A stretch of DNA of 31,815 nucleotides from a virus (Duplodnaviria; Heunggongvirae; Uroviricota; Caudoviricetes). Both the position numbers and the translations under genes were made by a program. The stretch lies in IMG/VR virus record IMGVR_UViG_2872152978_000007. One strand, 5' to 3'. Numbering within the stretch: the stretch's first letter is position 1; each line of letters opens with the position of its first letter. This document shows positions 24,134 through 31,815 of this stretch, one piece after another. The notes under the pieces were generated by a model that worked only from the letters and a program-made list of their open reading frames with translations, was not told the origin of the DNA and searched no databases.

Positions 24134-24208
<75 letters not shown>

Positions 24209-24211
24209 ATA

Positions 24212-24287
<76 letters not shown>

Positions 24288-24289
24288 GC

Positions 24290-24366
24290 TGGCCCACCAC
24301 CGAGGACTCGAACCTCGCACCGTCAACTTAGAAGGTTGATGCTCTATCCGGATGAGCTAGTGGTGG
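24290..24366 (-). tRNA. tRNA-Arg (anticodon UCU)
   Basis: Reverse complement CCACCACTAGCTCATCCGGATAGAGCATCAACCTTCTAAGTTGACGGTGCGAGGTTCGAGTCCTCGGTGGTGGGCCA; 7-bp acceptor stem, anticodon loop CTTCTAA; unusual C1-G72 first pair. Confidence 0.75.
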
Positions 24367-24367
24367 T

Positions 24368-24444
24368 TGGTGGCCCTTGCTGGACTTGAACCAGCGACCT
24401 GGCGATTATGAGTCGCTCGCTCTGACCAACTGAGCTAAAGGGCC
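24368..24444 (-). tRNA. tRNA-Ile2/Met-like (anticodon CAU; ileX/ileZ-like)
   Basis: Reverse complement GGCCCTTTAGCTCAGTTGGTCAGAGCGAGCGACTCATAATCGCCAGGTCGCTGGTTCAAGTCCAGCAAGGGCCACCA; anticodon loop CTCATAA; resembles chromosomal ileX. Confidence 0.8.
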
Positions 24445-27251: not shown

Positions 27252-28070
27252 TTAAGCAGCCATCTGATGATATTTTTCCCTGAAGGCTGCCGGGGAGATA
27301 TTCCCCAGACGAGAGTGACGACGCTGACGATTGTAGAAAATCTCAATGTATTCCCGTATTACTGAGATGGCTTCATCCCGGTTATTAAAACGATAGTGGC
27401 TCAGGCTCTCATTTTTCAGCGTTCCCCAGAAGCTTTCCATCGGAGCGTTGTCGTAACAGTGACCTTTACGCGACATTGATGTTTTCAGACCAGACTGCTC
27501 CTGTATGACCCGGTAATCGTATGCGCAGTACTGTGAACCTCGATCAGAGTGGTGGATTAGCCCGGCAGGTGGGCGCTGGCTCCTGAGCGCCATAAACAGG
27601 GCTTTACCTGTCAGCTCTTTTGTCATGCGCTCTCCCATGGCGTAGCCGACAATTTCGCACGTATAAACATCTTTGATGCCAGCGAGGTACAACCATCCCT
27701 CCTGTGTGGCAACATACGTCAGGTCCGCCACCCAGACCTGATTTGGTGCTGTAGGAGCGAACGTCTGGTTCAGCAGATTTGGCGCAACTGGCAGATTGTG
27801 GTTCGGGTTCGTAGTCGCTCTGAACTTGCGTTTCTGCTTACAGCGTAGCCTTAGCTCCTTACGAAGACGTGCCAGTCGGTCACGACCAACGATGATGCCA
27901 TTCTCTGCCAGCTCCGTCTGGAGCCGCCGGGTTCCATATGTTTCGCGAGTGCGGATATGTGCCACCTTAATCTCCAGTTTTAGCCGCTCATCACTTTGTT
28001 TTCTGTCTGAGGGTTCATGCTGTACCCAGTTGTAATAACCGCTCCTGGATACACCAAATACCTGACACAT
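27252..28070 (-). CDS. IS600 transposase OrfB
   Basis: 272-aa ORF ...NQVWVADLTYVATQEGWLYLAGIKDVYTCEIVGYAMGERMTKEL...HSDRGSQYCAYDY... Confidence 0.9.
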   Translation of the reverse strand: MCQVFGVSRSGYYNWVQHEPSDRKQSDERLKLEIKVAHIRTRETYGTRRLQTELAENGIIVGRDRLARLRKELRLRCKQKRKFRATTNPNHNLPVAPNLLNQTFAPTAPNQVWVADLTYVATQEGWLYLAGIKDVYTCEIVGYAMGERMTKELTGKALFMALRSQRPPAGLIHHSDRGSQYCAYDYRVIQEQSGLKTSMSRKGHCYDNAPMESFWGTLKNESLSHYRFNNRDEAISVIREYIEIFYNRQRRHSRLGNISPAAFREKYHQMAA

Positions 28071-28105
28071 CGCTTCAATGGGAAATTGTTGTCGCCATTG
28101 TTCGA

Positions 28106-28408
28106 TTAACGCGTATTTTTCAGCGACTCCTGTGCAAAATACGCTGTTGCTTTTTTTAATATATCTCGCTCAAGGCGAGCTTCATTTAACGCCTTACGCA
28201 GTTGCAGAATTTCAGATTCCAGTTCAGCCACCGTGCGGGAACCAGGAGTACCGAGCCCTTTTCTGGCGGCGGTAACCCATTGTCCTAAAGTGCCTTCAGG
28301 AAGGGATAATCGGGAAGCGCCTTCACTGATCGAAAGTTGATTTTCAAGAACCGTTCTGACAGCTTCGGCTTTGAACTCTTTAGAGTAACGTTGGTTTTTT
28401 CTGCTCAT
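28106..28408 (-). CDS. IS600 OrfA
   Basis: MSRKNQRYSKEFKAEAVRTVLENQLSISEGASRLSLPEGTLGQWVTAARKGLGTPGSRTVAELESEILQLRKALNEARLERDILKKATAYFAQESLKNTR. Confidence 0.9.
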   Translation of the reverse strand: MSRKNQRYSKEFKAEAVRTVLENQLSISEGASRLSLPEGTLGQWVTAARKGLGTPGSRTVAELESEILQLRKALNEARLERDILKKATAYFAQESLKNTR

Positions 28409-28531: not shown

Positions 28532-29077
28532 TTATTTTAAGGAAAGCAACTGCTCTACGGTCATGTTTTTAATTGCGCCCCGGTTTACAAGAGTCCAGCC
28601 CTGTTTTTCCAGATAAAACCAGAAAGTCTCCAGGGTACAGACCAGTGCGCCATCAGGAACGGTTTCGGTGAATTCGACATTGCCGAATTTGTCGAAGTGA
28701 ACAACCAGAGTGCGACCATCACCCGGAATCATCTTGTCAGCAGGTGGGGTGTTATTCTGGCGCAGTTCGGCCTCCATGCGGTCGAACTCAGCAATGTAGG
28801 CTTCCTTGAATGTGGCGGCTTTTTTGCCCGTGAAGCCCATCACCAGGAAAACGAAGCCGTTTTTGGTGATTTGGTAGGCGTTATAAGAATTGCCGCGGTG
28901 TTCGAATTTAACCCGCGAAAAGTTGCTGGTTAAAAATAGTTCAGAACATTCGAGGGATTCTATTTTTTGAACAACATGGTGATGCTGCTTGCCAAAAAAC
29001 TCAGCAATCGAAATAGAAGTAGTGACGGCGCGACCATTTTCGATGGTTACGTCAGGGTGAGAAAGGGTGGTAGCCAT
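28532..29077 (-). CDS. Rha-family phage regulatory protein (antirepressor-like)
   Basis: Likely start MATTLSHPDVTIENGRAVTTSISIAEFFGKQHHHVVQKIESL... (track ORF extends upstream to 29236); Rha-type N-terminal motif. Confidence 0.55.
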   Translation of the reverse strand: MATTLSHPDVTIENGRAVTTSISIAEFFGKQHHHVVQKIESLECSELFLTSNFSRVKFEHRGNSYNAYQITKNGFVFLVMGFTGKKAATFKEAYIAEFDRMEAELRQNNTPPADKMIPGDGRTLVVHFDKFGNVEFTETVPDGALVCTLETFWFYLEKQGWTLVNRGAIKNMTVEQLLSLK

Positions 29078-29243
29078 AATGACATCCTCAAGTGATAAGT
29101 TAATTAACTCACCAGCAGAGGTGCTAATCTCATGGGTGGTGAGACGCACAGGGTTAGCACTACCGGTCACTCGAGAACCCGGCCAGCCTTGCGGCTGCCC
29201 CGCACGCCTCACCATAATTTGAATGTGGCTGTGCATTACGCAT

Positions 29244-29268
29244 AAAAAAAAACCGCTTCAGCGCGGTT
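29244..29268 (-). terminator. Rho-independent terminator, minus strand
   Basis: Minus strand reads AACCGC-GCTGAA-GCGGTT followed by a T run (plus-strand aaaaaaaaaccgcttcagcgcggtt). Confidence 0.5.
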
Positions 29269-29395
29269 ATGCGCTCGAGTAACTTTCGGGGTGCTAATCC
29301 CGGCGCCCGTTTTATGAGGTGCAGGTGCATTATAATTCCACCCGTTCTGGTTTTCAATAGCTACATTCAACATTTTCTCTTTCCTTTCATCACCG

Positions 29396-29560
29396 AAGTG
29401 AATTTTGTGATGCGGTGCCTAGTGCCTCCAGGTGACGTTAACCAGTTAACAATTACAGTCGGCTTTCCCACCCAAACCAATAAGGACTAACATGACTTTT
29501 AACTGTGCCGCGTGCGCTTAGCCGCATTCACCGCATCACAAAATTCACTTTAAAAAGGGC
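29396..29560. repeat. 22-bp perfect inverted repeat pair separated by 121 bp
   Basis: AAGTGAATTTTGTGATGCGGTG at 29396..29417; exact reverse complement CACCGCATCACAAAATTCACTT at 29539..29560. Confidence 0.9.
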
Positions 29561-29794
29561 GGACATCAGCCAGCAATTAAACCGATGCCGCCAACTGGTA
29601 CTTCACACAGCAATGTCGTTATTTACAACCGGAAGCGCACTCCCACCATTTAAATTTCACAGACAAGACCGACTCTTTATGAATACCGGAAATGCGCCTT
29701 CGTGTTGTGCCCGGTTTTATTTCACCACCTCCGGGCTTTGGTGGCCTCGGCTATACCTCTACAGCGAGAATATTGAATTAATCCAATAAATGGA

Positions 29795-30001
29795 TTAGCT
29801 GGTATTTTTGGCAAGCCAGCGACGTGCGCCAGCTTCGGTTTTAAACGTTTTGCTTTTGGTATACGTCATGGCGGTGAATGTGCCGTCCTGATTGGGAAAC
29901 ACGCCACACACTAGGGATTCGTTGTTGCCAAGATCGATAGTATCCATGCTGACCTCATTTCCCCTTAACGCCGGGGTAGCGGAACTGTTTGCTGAGAACA
30001 C
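29795..30001 (-). CDS. Small hypothetical protein of the dicA-side operon
   Basis: 68-aa ORF; probable core MDTIDLGNNESLVCGVFPNQDGTFTAMTYTKSKTFKTEAGARRWLAKNTS. Confidence 0.35.
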   Translation of the reverse strand: MFSANSSATPALRGNEVSMDTIDLGNNESLVCGVFPNQDGTFTAMTYTKSKTFKTEAGARRWLAKNTS

Positions 30002-30149
30002 CGTGCGGTGTCTTGATGAATGAAATTTAGAATAACCTAAGGTGTTGGGTTAAGATTTTATGTAGAAAAACCTAAGTTTTTTTGATGTAAAAAACACAAG
30101 TGTTTGAAAGTTTGTGCTTTTTATTGCAGGGTGTGGAGAAAAAAGGGGA

Positions 30150-30557
30150 TTATTTGTTTGCGCTTCTTTTGCGAGCTTTGAGTAGTTCTTCAAAAAGTTT
30201 GTTGAAATTTTCAACTCGAGCACGCATCTCTGACAACAGGGCCTTTTGCTCTGACTCAGGCAGTGCGTCGAACAGTTGAAGTAACTCTTTTTGATCTTCT
30301 GTCAGAATGGCTGGCTGATTATCCGGGATCGGTTCGCCTGGTTGTTTATCTTCATCCCCAAAAAGAAGCCAAGTCGGTGAGCACTGAAGCGCTTGGCTCA
30401 GTGCGAATAATCTTTTCCCCGCCGGCTGTGTTTCATCTCTTTCCCATTGAGAAATTGTTACGTGAGCCACTTTGACCAGCTTACCTAATGCGGCCTGAGA
30501 CAGTTTTAATTTTTTACGCCTATGTAAGAGGCGAGCACCGAAGGTTTCGTTTTTCAT
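30150..30557 (-). CDS. dicA: DicA-like helix-turn-helix prophage repressor
   Basis: 135-aa ORF MKNETFGARLLHRRKKLKLSQAALGKLVKVAHVTISQWERDETQPAGKRLFALSQALQCSPTWLLFGDEDKQ...PESEQKALLSEMRARVENFNKLFEELLKARKRSANK, closely recalling E. coli Qin DicA. Confidence 0.8.
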   Translation of the reverse strand: MKNETFGARLLHRRKKLKLSQAALGKLVKVAHVTISQWERDETQPAGKRLFALSQALQCSPTWLLFGDEDKQPGEPIPDNQPAILTEDQKELLQLFDALPESEQKALLSEMRARVENFNKLFEELLKARKRSANK

Positions 30558-30633
30558 ATTAGGGAATTCTAATTTTTCTTGACTTAGGTTTCTCTACGAT
30601 CTAGTTTCCTTAGGAAAATCTAAGGAGCTCGAT
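30558..30633. promoter_or_regulatory. Divergent promoter/operator region between the dicA-like and dicC-like genes
   Basis: TTGACT at 30579..30584; dyad CCTTAG-gaaaat-CTAAGG at 30608..30625; CTTAGG/CCTAAG cores recur at 30583..30590 and downstream of dicA at 30035..30042 and 30069..30076. Confidence 0.5.
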
Positions 30634-30862
30634 ATGTTGAAAATTGATGCTATAGCGTTTTTTGGCAGCAAAACAAAGCATTGCCAATGCCGCAGGAGTT
30701 AGGCTGGCAAGCATTGCTGCATGGGGGGAACTGGTTCCTGAAGGTCGCGCGATGCGCCTGCAAGAGGCATCTGGCGGGGAACTTCAGTACGACCCCAAAG
30801 TTTATGACGAATATCGTAAGGCAAAACGACCTGGGAAGGTGATTCATGAAAATCAGGCATGA
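30634..30862 (+). pseudogene. dicC: DicC-like Cro-type regulator, frameshifted near 30679
   Basis: ATG at 30634 with AAGGA upstream gives MLKIDAIAFFGSKTK then stops; the next frame continues ...ANAAGVRLASIAAWGELVPEGRAMRLQEASGGELQYDPKVYDEYRKAKRPGKVIHENQA. Confidence 0.6.
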
Positions 30863-31268
30863 GCACATCGAATCAGTGCTGTTAGCCCTGGCAGCCGAAA
30901 AAGGGCAGGCGTGGGTCGCTAACGCAATTACTGAAGAATATCTGCGGCAGGGGGGCGGCGAATTGCCTCTGGTACCAGGCAAGGACTGGAACAATCAGCA
31001 GAATATCTATCACCGTTGGTTGAAAGGTGAAACGAAAGCGCAAAGGGAAAAAATTCAGAAACTGATCCCTGCGGTTCTGGCAATTCTTCCGCGTGAGCTG
31101 CGTCACCGACTCTGTATCTTCGATACCCTGGAACGCCGTGCATTACTGGCGGCGCAGGAAGCGTTGAGTACGGCAATTGATGCGCATGATGACGCAGTTC
31201 AGGCCGTTTACCGGAAAGCACATTTCAGCGGTGGTGGGTCGTCCGACGATTCTGTCGTTGTGCATTGA
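30846..31268 (+). CDS. ydaT: YdaT-like prophage protein
   Basis: 140-aa ORF MKIRHEHIESVLLALAAEKGQAWVANAITEEYLRQGGGELPLVPGKDWNNQQNIYHRWLKGET..., recalling E. coli Rac YdaT; overlaps the dicC-like stop. Confidence 0.6.
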   Translation: MKIRHEHIESVLLALAAEKGQAWVANAITEEYLRQGGGELPLVPGKDWNNQQNIYHRWLKGETKAQREKIQKLIPAVLAILPRELRHRLCIFDTLERRALLAAQEALSTAIDAHDDAVQAVYRKAHFSGGGSSDDSVVVH

Positions 31269-31359
31269 TGTTTATGCCGAACCTCCTCTGGTTCTGTTGA
31301 TTGGGGAATCACAGATTATATCCGGAGGAAGGTTCGGCACCAGACGAGGTTTCTATATA

Positions 31360-31440
31360 TGAGCATGAAACTAATGGCAAAAGCAATGGAAATTAAAGTG
31401 GGTAATCCATTGCGTAAGCTGGTTCTGATTAAGCTGGCTG
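31360..31440 (+). pseudogene. Start of a prophage helix-turn-helix / replication-initiation-like gene, truncated by IS911
   Basis: MSMKLMAKAMEIKVGNPLRKLVLIKLA reads directly into the IS911 left terminal repeat at 31441. Confidence 0.4.

Positions 31441-31815
<375 letters not shown>

Follow-up and report, generated by a model that had tools for sequence, protein, structure and literature searches.

The dicA-dicC / dicBp immunity locus of the Qin cryptic prophage of Escherichia coli K-12 was reportedly described by Bejar et al. in 1986 and 1988. Work on the same locus (Yun et al. 2012, PMC3441716; Ragunathan et al. 2023, PMC10448788) counts three operators at dicA-dicC and as many at dicBp (PMC10448788). 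In vivo, DicA binds the operator Oc, and an A-to-C change in its CTAA core (CTAA to CTCA) abolishes the binding; the sites Om and Oa, in contrast to Oc, did not bind DicA when tested singly (PMC3441716). Deletion of dicC in K-12 lowers the spontaneous switching of dicBp from 1.16% to 0.04% and blunts its induction by urea and heat (PMC10448788).

Related immunity regions have been described in E. coli O157:H7. DicA and DicC of O157:H7 and of the PPompW-type prophages of EHEC are of the same immunity type as the locus analysed here (Pan et al. 2019, PMC6915034; GenBank LC5678xx); in O157:H7, dicB expression is lower in a ΔdicC strain, overexpression of DicC represses dicA, and the operators are neither defined nor mentioned (PMC6915034). 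In the PaaR2/YdaS/YdaT region of CP-933P (Jurenas et al. 2021, PMC8630535), the repressor and a Cro analogue diverge, and YdaT, a CII analogue, comes after the latter. Several 18-bp palindromes lie between the divergent genes, over ~97 bp, and others at a PL-like promoter; the switch is bistable, with a leaderless mRNA for the repressor (PMC8630535).

Here we analyse a locus in a 31,815-nt stretch of viral DNA (IMG/VR record IMGVR_UViG_2872152978_000007; hereafter the window). The region is a prophage immunity switch of the DicA/DicC type, an ordinary kind that has been described before. Considering (i) its homology to known modules, (ii) the positions of its sites, (iii) the non-random clustering of their motif, (iv) its conservation, and (v) a genuine frameshift, it is very probably a lambdoid Qin/dic-type immunity module that has become a repressor-dominated, decaying remnant, with repressor sites flanking the repressor gene and dicC reduced to a pseudogene.

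Gene content and prophage context

The order ydfA-dicA-dicC-ydaT is syntenic with related E. coli prophages annotated as dicA/dicC and, as in K-12 Qin, ydfA is followed by dicA and then by a divergent dicC. The dicA-like gene (30150..30557, minus strand) encodes a repressor of 135 amino acids that is 61% identical to K-12 DicA over its full length and, like the K-12 protein, has no cleavage domain. Its Pfam matches are confined to HTH families (residues 6-72), with HTH_3 in the N-terminal domain (E 8e-14). Pfam gave no match to a peptidase S24 or RecA-cleavage domain in the repressor, which is not of the SOS-inducible lambda cI / P22 C2 type; the last part of the 135-residue chain is a C-terminal segment specific to DicA. 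The N-terminal domain of the repressor matches C2 of Salmonella phage P22 at residues 2-69 (PDB 1ADR, 2R1J; E 1e-21), and the Cro protein is homologous to that of P22 immC, but P22 C2 carries a C-terminal, RecA-cleavable oligomerisation domain that the DicA-type repressor of the window lacks. Helix 2 of the HTH starts with SQA in the window repressor and with TQR in K-12 DicA. Directly after the dicA stop codon lies an A/U-rich 12-bp hairpin (30088..30123, minus strand; inverted repeat I6; fold −9.2 kcal/mol, z −3.4), which is possibly a weak terminator.

On the plus strand, a dicC-like gene of the P22 Cro family (30634..30862) starts at ATG 30634, leaving a dicA-dicC intergenic region of 76 bp (30558-30633). 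An extra A at 30680 has made it a pseudogene by a +1 frameshift: the frame from the ATG ends after 22 codons, and an out-of-frame remnant ORF of 66 amino acids is left at 30662-30862. A ydaT-like gene in the position of a CII regulator (30846..31268, plus strand; Pfam YdaT_toxin, E 2e-11) overlaps the end of dicC, whereas the fragments ydfX and ydfW follow dicC in K-12. To the left of dicA, a ydfA-like gene (29795..29950, minus strand; 51 amino acids, MDTIDLG...; Pfam DUF1391, E 8e-30) is the first gene of a leftward operon of the PL/dicBp type, and its position equals that of ydfA in K-12 Qin and five related E. coli loci.

The module appears to have been left as an island of ~3 kb in a Shigella dysenteriae-like genome, with an IS600-like element on one side and IS911 on the other, and dicA, ydfA and ydaT would be its only intact parts. 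Both operons are cut short by these elements, and the replication genes and part of rha have been lost to IS elements in the same remnant. The stretch from ydfA to the IS600-like element showed no dicB and holds only DicF-like, STnc100-like, isrK and C4 RNA matches and a truncated rha; the DicF match is sub-threshold (28.6 bits versus a gathering score of 48). Rfam gave no RNA family in the control regions. The YdaT box TTGATT-N6-AATCAA was matched 12 times at up to three mismatches versus 14 expected, which is not significant, and a YdaT-box-like match at the dicC/ydaT junction is suggestive by position only.

This immunity type is present in 751 of 5,426 complete E. coli genomes (~14%) and is carried by many Shigella too. 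The exact repressor protein was found in contigs from more than 10,000 blocks of a public assembly collection, the sources of which are given as Shigella and Enterobacteriaceae.

Control regions and operator-like sites

The initial annotation had described a DicA-like and a DicC-like gene diverging over 76 bp, with a TTGACT −35 box and the dyad CCTTAG-gaaaat-CTAAGG between them, all of which are present. The PR/dicCp-like promoter (30579..30607, plus strand), as read from the sequence, consists of the −35 hexamer TTGACT (30579-30584), a 17-nt spacer and the −10 hexamer TAGTTT (30602-30607), and its TTGACT and geometry are conserved with K-12 dicCp (TTGACT-17-TATCTT). It matches the consensus at 8 of 12 positions, which is under the scanner threshold: a consensus promoter scan of 29750-30900 found neither PR nor its leftward counterpart PL; together with the terminator search it returned one promoter-like and one terminator-like site, both inside dicA, with no excess over shuffles. 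The promoter assignments are thus based on the alignment with K-12 and on hexamer geometry.

The dyad constitutes an OR1-like operator (30608..30625), perfect in its 6+6 arms, that aligns column for column with K-12 Oc (TTGTTAGTCATAACTAACAA). It is placed directly after the PR −10 hexamer, over the expected start site, and takes in the dicC Shine-Dalgarno sequence AAGGAG (30622-30627). The position and length of the dyad and its TTAG-N6-CTAA core are those of Oc, but its outer bases are not (CC/GG in CCTTAG-N6-CTAAGG versus TG/CA in TGTTAG-N6-CTAACA), a difference in immunity specificity. The OR2-like site ACTTAG-gtttct-CTACGA (30582..30599) overlaps the PR −35 hexamer and spacer, is positionally equivalent to K-12 Om, and is a 94% inverted match to the OL2-like site described below (repeat family I2). 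The OR3-like site TATTAG-ggaatt-CTAATT (30557..30574), which the initial annotation had missed along with the 18-bp dyad as the true repeat unit, abuts the dicA start codon, contains an exact TTAG-N6-CTAA (repeat I1) and aligns with K-12 Oa. Within OR3, a −10-like TAGAAT (30571 to 30566, minus strand) lies 8 nt before the dicA ATG, and a TAnnnT hexamer 8-10 nt before this codon recurs in 16 of 16 family loci, whatever their operator type; TAGAAT could be a PRM-like promoter that gives a leaderless or near-leaderless dicA mRNA.

On the other side of the repressor gene, the putative PL/dicBp-like promoter has the −35 hexamer TTAACC (30048..30053, minus strand), which is TTGACC in related E. coli loci; the aligned place in K-12 reads TTGACC-17-TAATCT. 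The OL1-like operator ATTTAG-aataac-CTAAGG (30025..30042; repeat families D1, I1 and I3), again with an exact TTAG-N6-CTAA, overlaps the spacer and −10 hexamer (TAAATT, 30029 to 30024, minus strand) of this promoter and is positionally equivalent to K-12 TGTTAGTCATGGCTAATC at dicBp. The OL2-like operator ATGTAG-aaaaac-CTAAGT (30060..30077) lies just upstream of the PL −35 hexamer and has a 15-mer in common with OR2. Two operators 35 bp apart that bracket the leftward promoter are also a feature of K-12 Qin, and the OL1-OL2 spacing is 35 bp in 10 of 12 DicA-family loci (the window and 9 of 11 others). A third OL site at 30084-30101 was rejected: its arm match is poor, its right arm varies among strains, and it is located inside the A/U hairpin. 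When the PL leader was considered as a structured RNA, a pattern scan of viral contigs returned only near-identical E. coli-type copies and chance matches, and the leader of the window folds no better than shuffles (z −0.27); an alignment fold of 10 sequences gave a weak signal, with compensatory changes in 3 of 7 pairs.

We infer by homology that a repressor dimer would bind these 18-bp dyads, the core of which is TTAG-N6-CTAA, and that CCTTAG-N6-CTAAGG would be the best operator form for this immunity type. OR1, OR2 and OR3 would cover the rightward promoter of dicC, ydaT and the replication genes, as well as the start of a weak, probably repressor-activated, near-leaderless dicA promoter. 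OL1 and OL2 would bracket the leftward promoter of the ydfA operon, which in intact relatives encodes the division inhibitors DicF and DicB. With the operators occupied, both outward promoters would be held off. The normal role of DicC, the Cro analogue, would be to turn dicA off and to make the 'on' state stable. This OL-repressor-OR-cro layout is the classical lambdoid one, already described for Qin.

Clustering and conservation of the operator motif

Copies of the core on both sides of the repressor gene had been noted in the initial annotation as suggestive of operators; they are found within 1-2 nt of the positions given there (CTTAGG at 30583-30588, CCTAAG at 30036-30041 and 30071-30076). 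CCTAAG/CTTAGG occurs five times in 31.8 kb versus 10.1 expected, and four of the five copies lie within 580 bp around the repressor gene. All three occurrences of TTAG-N6-CTAA in the window are here (30027, 30559 and 30610) versus 0.20 expected, a number reached by 0 of 100 shuffles, and all three matches to the 15-mer GTAGARAAACCTAAG at up to two mismatches are here as well, versus 0.03 expected. An unbiased repeat search recovers the five sites (families D1 and I1-I3). The clustering of the core is beyond chance. Furthermore, operators on both sides are a known arrangement, with OR and OL/dicBp in Qin (PMC10448788). In 12 DicA-family loci with hand-checked dyads of the CCTTAG, TGTTAG, TGTTGAG and TATTGAG types, further copies of the dyad next to dicC number 20 in the 1,620 nt just downstream of dicA versus 13 in 38,065 nt elsewhere, a 36-fold higher density.

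OR2, OL2 and OR3 differ from the perfect dyad at 3-4 of 12 arm positions, and a degenerate dyad with up to three mismatches is not rarer than chance in 31.8 kb (~12 expected by a binomial estimate). As such, these three sites were judged on their position, mutual similarity and conservation. The core half-sites have 0 of 16 positions variable versus 31 of 148 columns in the OL region, the exceptions among 19 loci of this immunity type being L031 and L032. In these 19 loci, 17 of the 18 positions of OR1 are invariant, with a T for the outermost C30608 in two; the core half-sites of OL1 are invariant except for a T-to-C change at 30027 (L032), while its spacer varies; and the sole change in OL2 is an indel with a G-to-A change at 30064-30065 (L031). 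In five related E. coli loci of the same type, the TAG/CTAAG core of OL2 does not vary. The operators of P22 are likewise dyads of 18 bp in which TTA keeps the same register (ATTTAAG...CTTAAAT), in a tripartite OR and OL, and their half-site reads TTAAG where that of the window reads TTAG.

Recurrent lesions in the Cro arm

Ten of the 19 loci had been fetched by exact DicA protein identity. Lesions of dicC recur independently in this set as three different events: the extra A at 30680 (the window, L007 and L008), C30785T, which turns Gln51 into a stop (L032 and L036), and the loss of one G at 30723 (L035). Changes in and around PR comprise G30581A in the −35 hexamer (L008), TAGTTT to TGGTTT in the −10 hexamer together with two neighbouring bases (L028-L030), T30600G (L007), and C30608T in OR1 (L032 and L036). 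The G-to-A change in the PL −35 hexamer (T at 30051) is confined to the window, L007 and L008.

The tally amounts to three dicC null alleles, at least three separate PR −35/−10/OR1 changes and a PL −35 down-mutation, and it raises the possibility that the Cro arm has been repeatedly and independently silenced in Shigella and E. coli by selection, not by random pseudogene decay, while an invariant dicA was kept. The dicC lesion of the window would then be one of several selected silencings of the PR/Cro arm, and the product a domesticated, repressor-only module, no longer able to flip, that provides stable immunity or represses homo-immune prophages in trans. The separate changes in the PR region beside the three dicC null events agree with this proposal, as do the 408-bp dicA, identical throughout the 98-99% identity group, and the K-12 and O157:H7 data, in which DicC expression derepresses the toxic dicB. 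However, the sample is small, the choice of ten loci by DicA identity biases the conservation of dicA, and the loss of G at 30723, which affects a G6 run, might be an artefact of assembly. Shigella genomes generally gather pseudogenes and IS insertions, and the same remnant has also lost its replication genes and part of rha. We regard selected silencing as tentative and rather doubtful. Ordinary decay of the remnant would include the PL −35 change (TTGACC to TTAACC) and the IS truncation of both operons.

Operator or promoter elements

Some core copies, especially CTTAGG at 30583-30588 and the site at 30557-30574, may be promoter-associated or DicC-specific elements instead of DicA operators, in which case their TTAG/CTAA would be coincidental. 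The CCTAAGTCAAG block (the 30583 copy, in OR2) is conserved also in loci with a TGTTAG-type OR1, so that this copy may in part be a promoter element or one related to DicC. The CCTAAGTCAAGAAAAATTAGAATTnnCTAAnTATG block, which holds the PR −35 hexamer and the −10-like TAGAAT of dicA, recurs almost unchanged in loci of E. albertii and E. ruysiae and in closely similar form in those of Citrobacter and Rahnella, all with TGTTAG-type OR1 and OL dyads; the conservation of the OR2/OR3/−35 block may reflect promoter function, not repressor specificity. Moreover, since Oc alone bound DicA in K-12, and Om and Oa did not (PMC3441716), binding of DicA at OR2 and OR3 may be weak or cooperative, or the two may be sites for DicC. 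On the other hand, OR2 equals OL2 at 15 of 16 positions in the inverted orientation, a match for which promoter function is a poor explanation, as OL2 is located upstream of the PL −35 hexamer and not within it. An overlap of OR2 and OR3 with promoter hexamers is typical of lambdoid phages, so that operator and promoter roles are not exclusive. We consider a non-operator nature of these copies unlikely and retain their reading as putative DicA operators.

Nature of the dicC lesion

The frameshift that the initial annotation had located near 30679 is one extra A at 30680 (AAAGCATTGCC versus AAAGC-TTGCC), first seen against FDAARGOS_943 and K-12. With this A removed, the gene encodes a 75-amino-acid protein that is 100% identical to the intact homologue in FDAARGOS_943 and 75% identical to K-12 DicC; with it, the first helix of the DicC HTH fold and half of the second are destroyed. 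The extra A is missing in 16 of the 18 other same-type loci, common only to L007 and L008 in the 19-locus set, and absent from all 5,426 complete E. coli genomes.

Assembly errors most often take the form of a one-base indel in a single sequence, and the E. coli relatives all have an intact dicC. However, the inserted A has no homopolymer context (GC-A-TT), and the identical allele is found in two other assemblies of S. dysenteriae type, GCA_000193895.2 (S. dysenteriae CDC 74-1112) and GCA_000268105.1, each of which has 4-7 other substitutions relative to the window over about 3.6 kb. As both carry substitutions of their own, they are independent sequences of one shared lineage. The dicC frameshift is real and inherited, and an error that hides an intact gene is highly improbable.

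That dicC and ydaT form a YdaS/YdaT toxin-antitoxin pair, with the frameshift killing a toxin-antitoxin partner and not Cro, has just as little to recommend it: the Pfam YdaT_toxin match, the RefSeq label 'toxin YdaT family protein' and a weak YdaS_toxin match of the repaired DicC (20.4 bits, under the cutoff of 30) are set against a P22_Cro match above cutoff (E 3e-13; 49.7 bits versus 30.2), an alignment with the P22 Cro structure (1RZS, residues 1-58), a gene position between the repressor and replication genes that is that of cro-cII, and experiments in which YdaS and YdaT homologues proved to be analogues of Cro and CII and do not form a toxin-antitoxin system (PMC8630535, PMC9986795).

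Discussion

The O157:H7-type copies are 93% identical to the window over dicA, both flanks and dicC, and their OR1, OR2 and OR3 equal those of the window but for one spacer base. The primers published for O157:H7 match this same immunity type (PMC6915034) and, together with the ΔdicC homology arm, contain the OR2-OR1 sequence of the window. Unlike the window, these copies have an intact dicC, an intact PL −35 hexamer TTGACC and usually a full ydfABC-dicF-dicB operon. The locus shares its gene order, the rightward −35 hexamer TTGACT and the paired leftward operator-like sites with K-12 Qin, but the window has a frameshift in dicC, no dicB, and DicF only below threshold. CP-933P resembles it in layout, with the repressor and Cro analogue diverging ahead of YdaT and with palindromes at both control regions, but its repressor PaaR2 has an unrelated sequence and is followed by an inserted toxin-antitoxin pair, and the operator consensus differs (GTTTAGTAA).

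As dicC is a pseudogene, the circuit should fall back to the repressed state after any transient derepression. We predict a switch biased towards repression, as the initial annotation did when it spoke of a lock in the repressed state. The published ΔdicC phenotypes in K-12 and O157:H7 agree with this step, which is drawn by analogy. However, with both operons truncated by IS elements, little is left for the switch to control, and with dicB absent and DicF sub-threshold, a 'locked switch' is without obvious output in cis.

The gain from this analysis is a set of operator and promoter coordinates for an immunity type found in about 14% of complete E. coli genomes; its genes have names in published work, but the operator sequence CCTTAG-N6-CTAAGG is not defined there. 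Significance beyond annotation is little. In the S. dysenteriae lineage, the module is a Cro-less, IS-truncated remnant in which the repressor is still intact, and the retained repressor could confer homo-immunity or repress dicB prophages of the same type in trans. If upheld in a population survey, the repeated lesions of dicC and PR would offer a small, testable case of the domestication of a prophage repressor.

A divergent DicA/DicC-like gene pair

The repressor-like gene dicA (135 codons, minus strand, 30150–30557) and the short Cro-like gene dicC (plus strand, ATG at 30634), both read from the sequence, diverge from a 76-bp intergenic region (30558–30633). In it, TTGACT (30579–30584) is followed after 17 nt by TAGTTT (30602–30607) and then at once by the perfect dyad CCTTAG-gaaaat-CTAAGG (30608–30625), the right arm of which runs into the plus-strand Shine-Dalgarno sequence AAGGAG. 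The initial annotation had described this pair and its control region accurately, and the further copies of the core that it reported are also present, as CTTAGG at 30583–30588 and as CCTAAG at 30036–30041 and 30071–30076, downstream of dicA.

Pfam searches place a ydfA homolog (DUF1391, 29795–29950) downstream of dicA and a YdaT-family gene (30846–31268) after dicC. The order ydfA, dicA, divergent dicC, ydaT is that annotated in related E. coli prophages and is found in the EHEC ‘PPompW’ prophages, in which the divergent pair carries the names dicA and dicC. The DicA-like protein shares 61% identity with K-12 DicA across the full length, and its residues 2–69 align with the N-terminal domain of the P22 C2 repressor (1ADR, 2R1J; E 1e-21); HTH_3 is its sole Pfam match, and a peptidase S24 domain was not found in the Pfam search. 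The DicC-like product, once its reading frame is repaired, is 75% identical to K-12 DicC, scores above threshold for Pfam P22_Cro and, in residues 1–58, matches P22 Cro (1RZS). Homologs of YdaS and YdaT are Cro and CII analogs, not a toxin-antitoxin pair (PMC8630535, PMC9986795). The region comprising dicA and both flanks (30002–30660) is present at 93–99% identity in 751 of 5,426 complete E. coli genomes, and the locus also occurs in sequenced EHEC prophage records (query 30002–30870).

Operator-like sites on both sides of the repressor gene

A whole-window search found the core concentrated at the dicA locus, where its clustering exceeds chance. The window has only five copies of CCTAAG/CTTAGG, fewer than the 10.1 expected, and four of the five lie within 580 bp at this locus. 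The gapped form TTAG-N6-CTAA is present in three copies across 31.8 kb, all of them here, versus 0.20 expected (0 of 100 shuffles reached three), and a 15-mer common to two sites has three matches at ≤2 mismatches versus 0.03 expected. A model-free repeat search recovered five related sites of 16–18 nt: OL1 (30025–30042, ATTTAGaataacCTAAGG) and OL2 (30060–30077, ATGTAGaaaaacCTAAGT) downstream of dicA, and OR3 (30557–30574, TATTAGggaattCTAATT), OR2 (30582–30599, ACTTAGgtttctCTACGA) and OR1 (30608–30625, CCTTAGgaaaatCTAAGG) between dicA and dicC. OL2 and OR2 are 94% complementary across 16 nt.

In the K-12 promoter region between dicA and dicC, Yun et al. (PMC3441716) identified the inverted repeat Oc, 5′-TTGTTAGTCATAACTAACAA, as the site that DicA binds; replacing one A by C within the CTAA core of Oc eliminates binding in vivo, and the sequence-predicted sites Om and Oa showed no binding when tested alone. 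In a three-way alignment, the window dyad coincides exactly with Oc, OR2 with Om and OR3 with Oa, and the −35 TTGACT is conserved. TTAG-N6-CTAA is common to both dyads, whereas the outer two bases are CC..GG in the window and TG..CA in K-12. In the Qin prophage, the dicA-dicC and dicA-dicBp regions contain three operators each, analogous to λ OR and OL, DicA taking the role of CI and DicC that of Cro (Ragunathan et al., PMC10448788). The predicted sites on both sides of the window repressor gene, as the initial annotation had suggested, thus reproduce the classical lambdoid arrangement.

DicA homologs from other species were retrieved and their flanks read; each locus has its own dyad next to dicC. 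The dyad is TGTTAG-N6-CTAACA in E. albertii, E. ruysiae, two Citrobacter genomes and Rahnella, of the TGTTGAG type in C. braakii and Superficieibacter, and TATTGAG-N4-CTCAAT in two metagenome-assembled genomes, with a related form in Buttiauxella. For 12 loci with hand-checked dyads, allowing ≤3 mismatches in the 12 arm positions, the dicC-proximal dyad recurs 20 times in the 1,620 nt directly downstream of dicA versus 13 in the remaining 38,065 nt, which makes it 36-fold enriched downstream. The downstream sites form a pair 35 bp apart, flanking a CTTGxC −35-like hexamer, at 10 of the 12 loci, the window included. Helix 2 of the HTH starts with TQR in all TGTTAG-type repressors and with SQA in the CCTTAG-type repressor, a single lineage contrast whose correspondence to dyad type is only suggestive.

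Across six loci of the window's immunity type, 31 of 148 OL-region columns vary, compared with 0 of the 16 TTAG/CTAA core positions; the variable bases fall in spacers, at outermost positions and in a hypervariable patch. This five-base patch (30043–30047), between OL1 and the −35 element of the leftward promoter, is different in almost every related locus, next to invariant operator cores.

Predicted promoters of the switch

From hexamer geometry, we infer a rightward dicC promoter (PR), a leftward ydfA-operon promoter (PL) and a dicA promoter, all three of which score below threshold in a consensus promoter scanner. PR reads TTGACT-17-TAGTTT (TTGACT-17-TATCTT in K-12); OR2 would cover its −35 element and spacer, and OR1 its start site. 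PL, on the minus strand, consists of TTAACC (30053 to 30048), an 18-nt spacer and TAAATT (30029 to 30024), compared with TTGACC-17-TAATCT in K-12; OL1 would cover its spacer and −10 element, with OL2 just upstream of the −35. The −35 element is TTGACC in five aligned E. coli relatives of this type as well as in K-12, and the G-to-A change (30048–30053) is found, among 19 same-type loci, only in the window and in two Shigella dysenteriae-type loci (L007 and L008). It is likely a promoter-down mutation, in a lineage that also carries the dicC frameshift.

A −10-like TAGAAT (30571 to 30566, minus strand) lies inside OR3, 8 nt before the dicA ATG, and a TAnnnT hexamer is found at a similar distance in 16 of 16 family loci of any operator type, which suggests a weak, PRM-like promoter and a leaderless or near-leaderless dicA mRNA. 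Leaderless repressor mRNAs are described for λ cI and paaR2 (PMC8630535). The block CCTAAGTCAAGAAAAATTAGAATTnnCTAAnTATG, from the PR −35 element to the dicA ATG (30557–30590), is conserved even where OR1 is of the TGTTAG type; part of the conservation of OR2 and OR3 may therefore be promoter- or DicC-related and not DicA-specific. The same stretch is conserved across comparison loci L009, L010, L013, L015, L019 and L024, the main operator dyads of which differ; the dicA promoter, a site preferred by DicC and separate from the DicA-specific dyads, or both may lie within it.

An inherited frameshift in dicC

The frameshift near 30679 noted in the initial annotation is caused by insertion of a single A at 30680 (AAAGC-A-TTGCC), initially detected by comparison with FDAARGOS_943 and K-12 and absent from 16 of the 18 other loci in the same-type set. 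Translation from ATG 30634 would end after 22 codons; deletion of the A in silico restores a 75-aa protein identical to the intact E. coli FDAARGOS_943 product. The lesion falls after Lys15, and alignment with P22 Cro shows that all of residues 1–58 would be needed. A 66-aa remnant ORF (TTG 30662) has no Shine-Dalgarno sequence and lacks the first 15 native residues, which, judging by the secondary structure of P22 Cro, would comprise helix 1 and half of helix 2.

The inserted A lies outside any homopolymer. The same 66-aa ORF is annotated in S. dysenteriae CDC 74-1112 (GCA_000193895.2) and in GCA_000268105.1, assemblies that are 99.8–99.9% identical to the window and have the IS911 junction in common with it, yet each carries 4–7 substitutions of its own; the allele is found in none of the 5,426 complete E. 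coli genomes searched. We therefore conclude that the frameshift is genuine and has been passed on within a Shigella lineage.

Among the 19 loci of this immunity type, dicC has been inactivated by three different events: the extra A (window, L007, L008), C30785T, which turns Gln51 into a stop (L032, L036), and loss of one G at 30723 (L035). Independent changes also affect PR: G30581A in the −35 element (L008), TAGTTT to TGGTTT in the −10 element (L028–L030), T30600G (L007) and, within OR1, C30608T (L032, L036). Alongside these lesions, dicA DNA is identical throughout the 98–99% identity group. Such a pattern could reflect selection against the Cro arm or plain pseudogene decay. Since Shigella genomes decay generally and an exact DicA match was the criterion by which ten of the loci were fetched, selective silencing of that arm, which we consider rather unlikely, is treated as a lead only.

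Leftward operon and neighboring elements

A C4 antisense RNA (78.6 bits) and isrK (63.8 bits) immediately precede a Rha/Ash-family regulatory gene truncated by an IS600-like element (29132–29322, 28532–29236, minus strand). Together they constitute a P1-immI/Gifsy-like antirepressor module in the leftward operon, a plausible inducer of a non-cleavable DicA-type repressor. Two sub-threshold RNA matches lie between ydfA and isrK (minus strand; 29557–29607 / 29404–29545), one DicF-like (28.6 bits, E 0.001; gathering score 48) and one STnc100-like (30.7 bits versus 47).

The leader from the PL start to the ydfA ATG (29961–30014, minus strand) contains hairpins ACACCGCACGGTGT and CCCCGGCGTTAAGGGG and, between them, a conserved CTCAG...GTTCCGCT. 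The hairpins are kept in divergent family loci, with compensatory changes in 3 of 7 pairs, and a second locus class has a boxB-like GAAAGA-loop hairpin at this position. The leader has no Rfam match and its fold is no stabler than shuffles (z −0.27); it may be a nut/put-like or leader element. Directly after the dicA stop, a 12-bp A/U-rich hairpin with a terminal U-run (30088–30123, minus strand; −9.2 kcal/mol, z −3.4) could be a weak terminator insulating dicA from the leftward operon.

The sequence GTGATTcatgaaAATCAG (30839–30856), placed exactly where dicC meets ydaT, has two mismatches to the published YdaT box TTGATT-N6-AATCAA, a match not statistically significant alone; a PRE-like promoter has been reported at this position in CP-933P (PMC8630535, PMC9986795). 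The 90-nt gap between ydaT and the O-like fragment contains a long inverted repeat, GCCGAACCTCC ... GGAGGAAGGTTCGGC (31276–31338), read from the sequence.

Consequence for the switch

The frequency of spontaneous switching at dicBp in K-12 drops from 1.16% to 0.04% when dicC is deleted, and urea and heat become weaker inducers (PMC10448788). In O157:H7, dicB is expressed less in a ΔdicC background, and overexpressed DicC induces dicB while repressing dicA (PMC6915034); the primers and homology arm published in that study match the window sequence, so the O157:H7 locus is of the same immunity type. The system, its logic, the K-12 operators and the O157:H7 behavior of this type are all published, and its explicit operator sequence, not found in the literature consulted, follows directly by homology; the finding is thus already known.

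Prophage fragments and IS copies make up the window as a mosaic, in which the immunity module forms an island of ~3 kb. On the left, the Rha/Ash-family gene is cut by an IS600-like element (27252–28408); on the right, a 57-codon fragment of an O-like replication gene (31359–) is cut by an IS911-type IS3 element (within 31359–31815; orfA start 31513). A four-tRNA gene cluster lies at 24137–24444 (minus strand); such clusters are often seen in lambdoid late regions. By analogy with the K-12 and O157:H7 deletions, the window circuit should be biased to the repressed state. No dicB was found between ydfA and the IS600-like element, and the switch has almost no targets left in cis; the intact DicA-like repressor could still act in trans.
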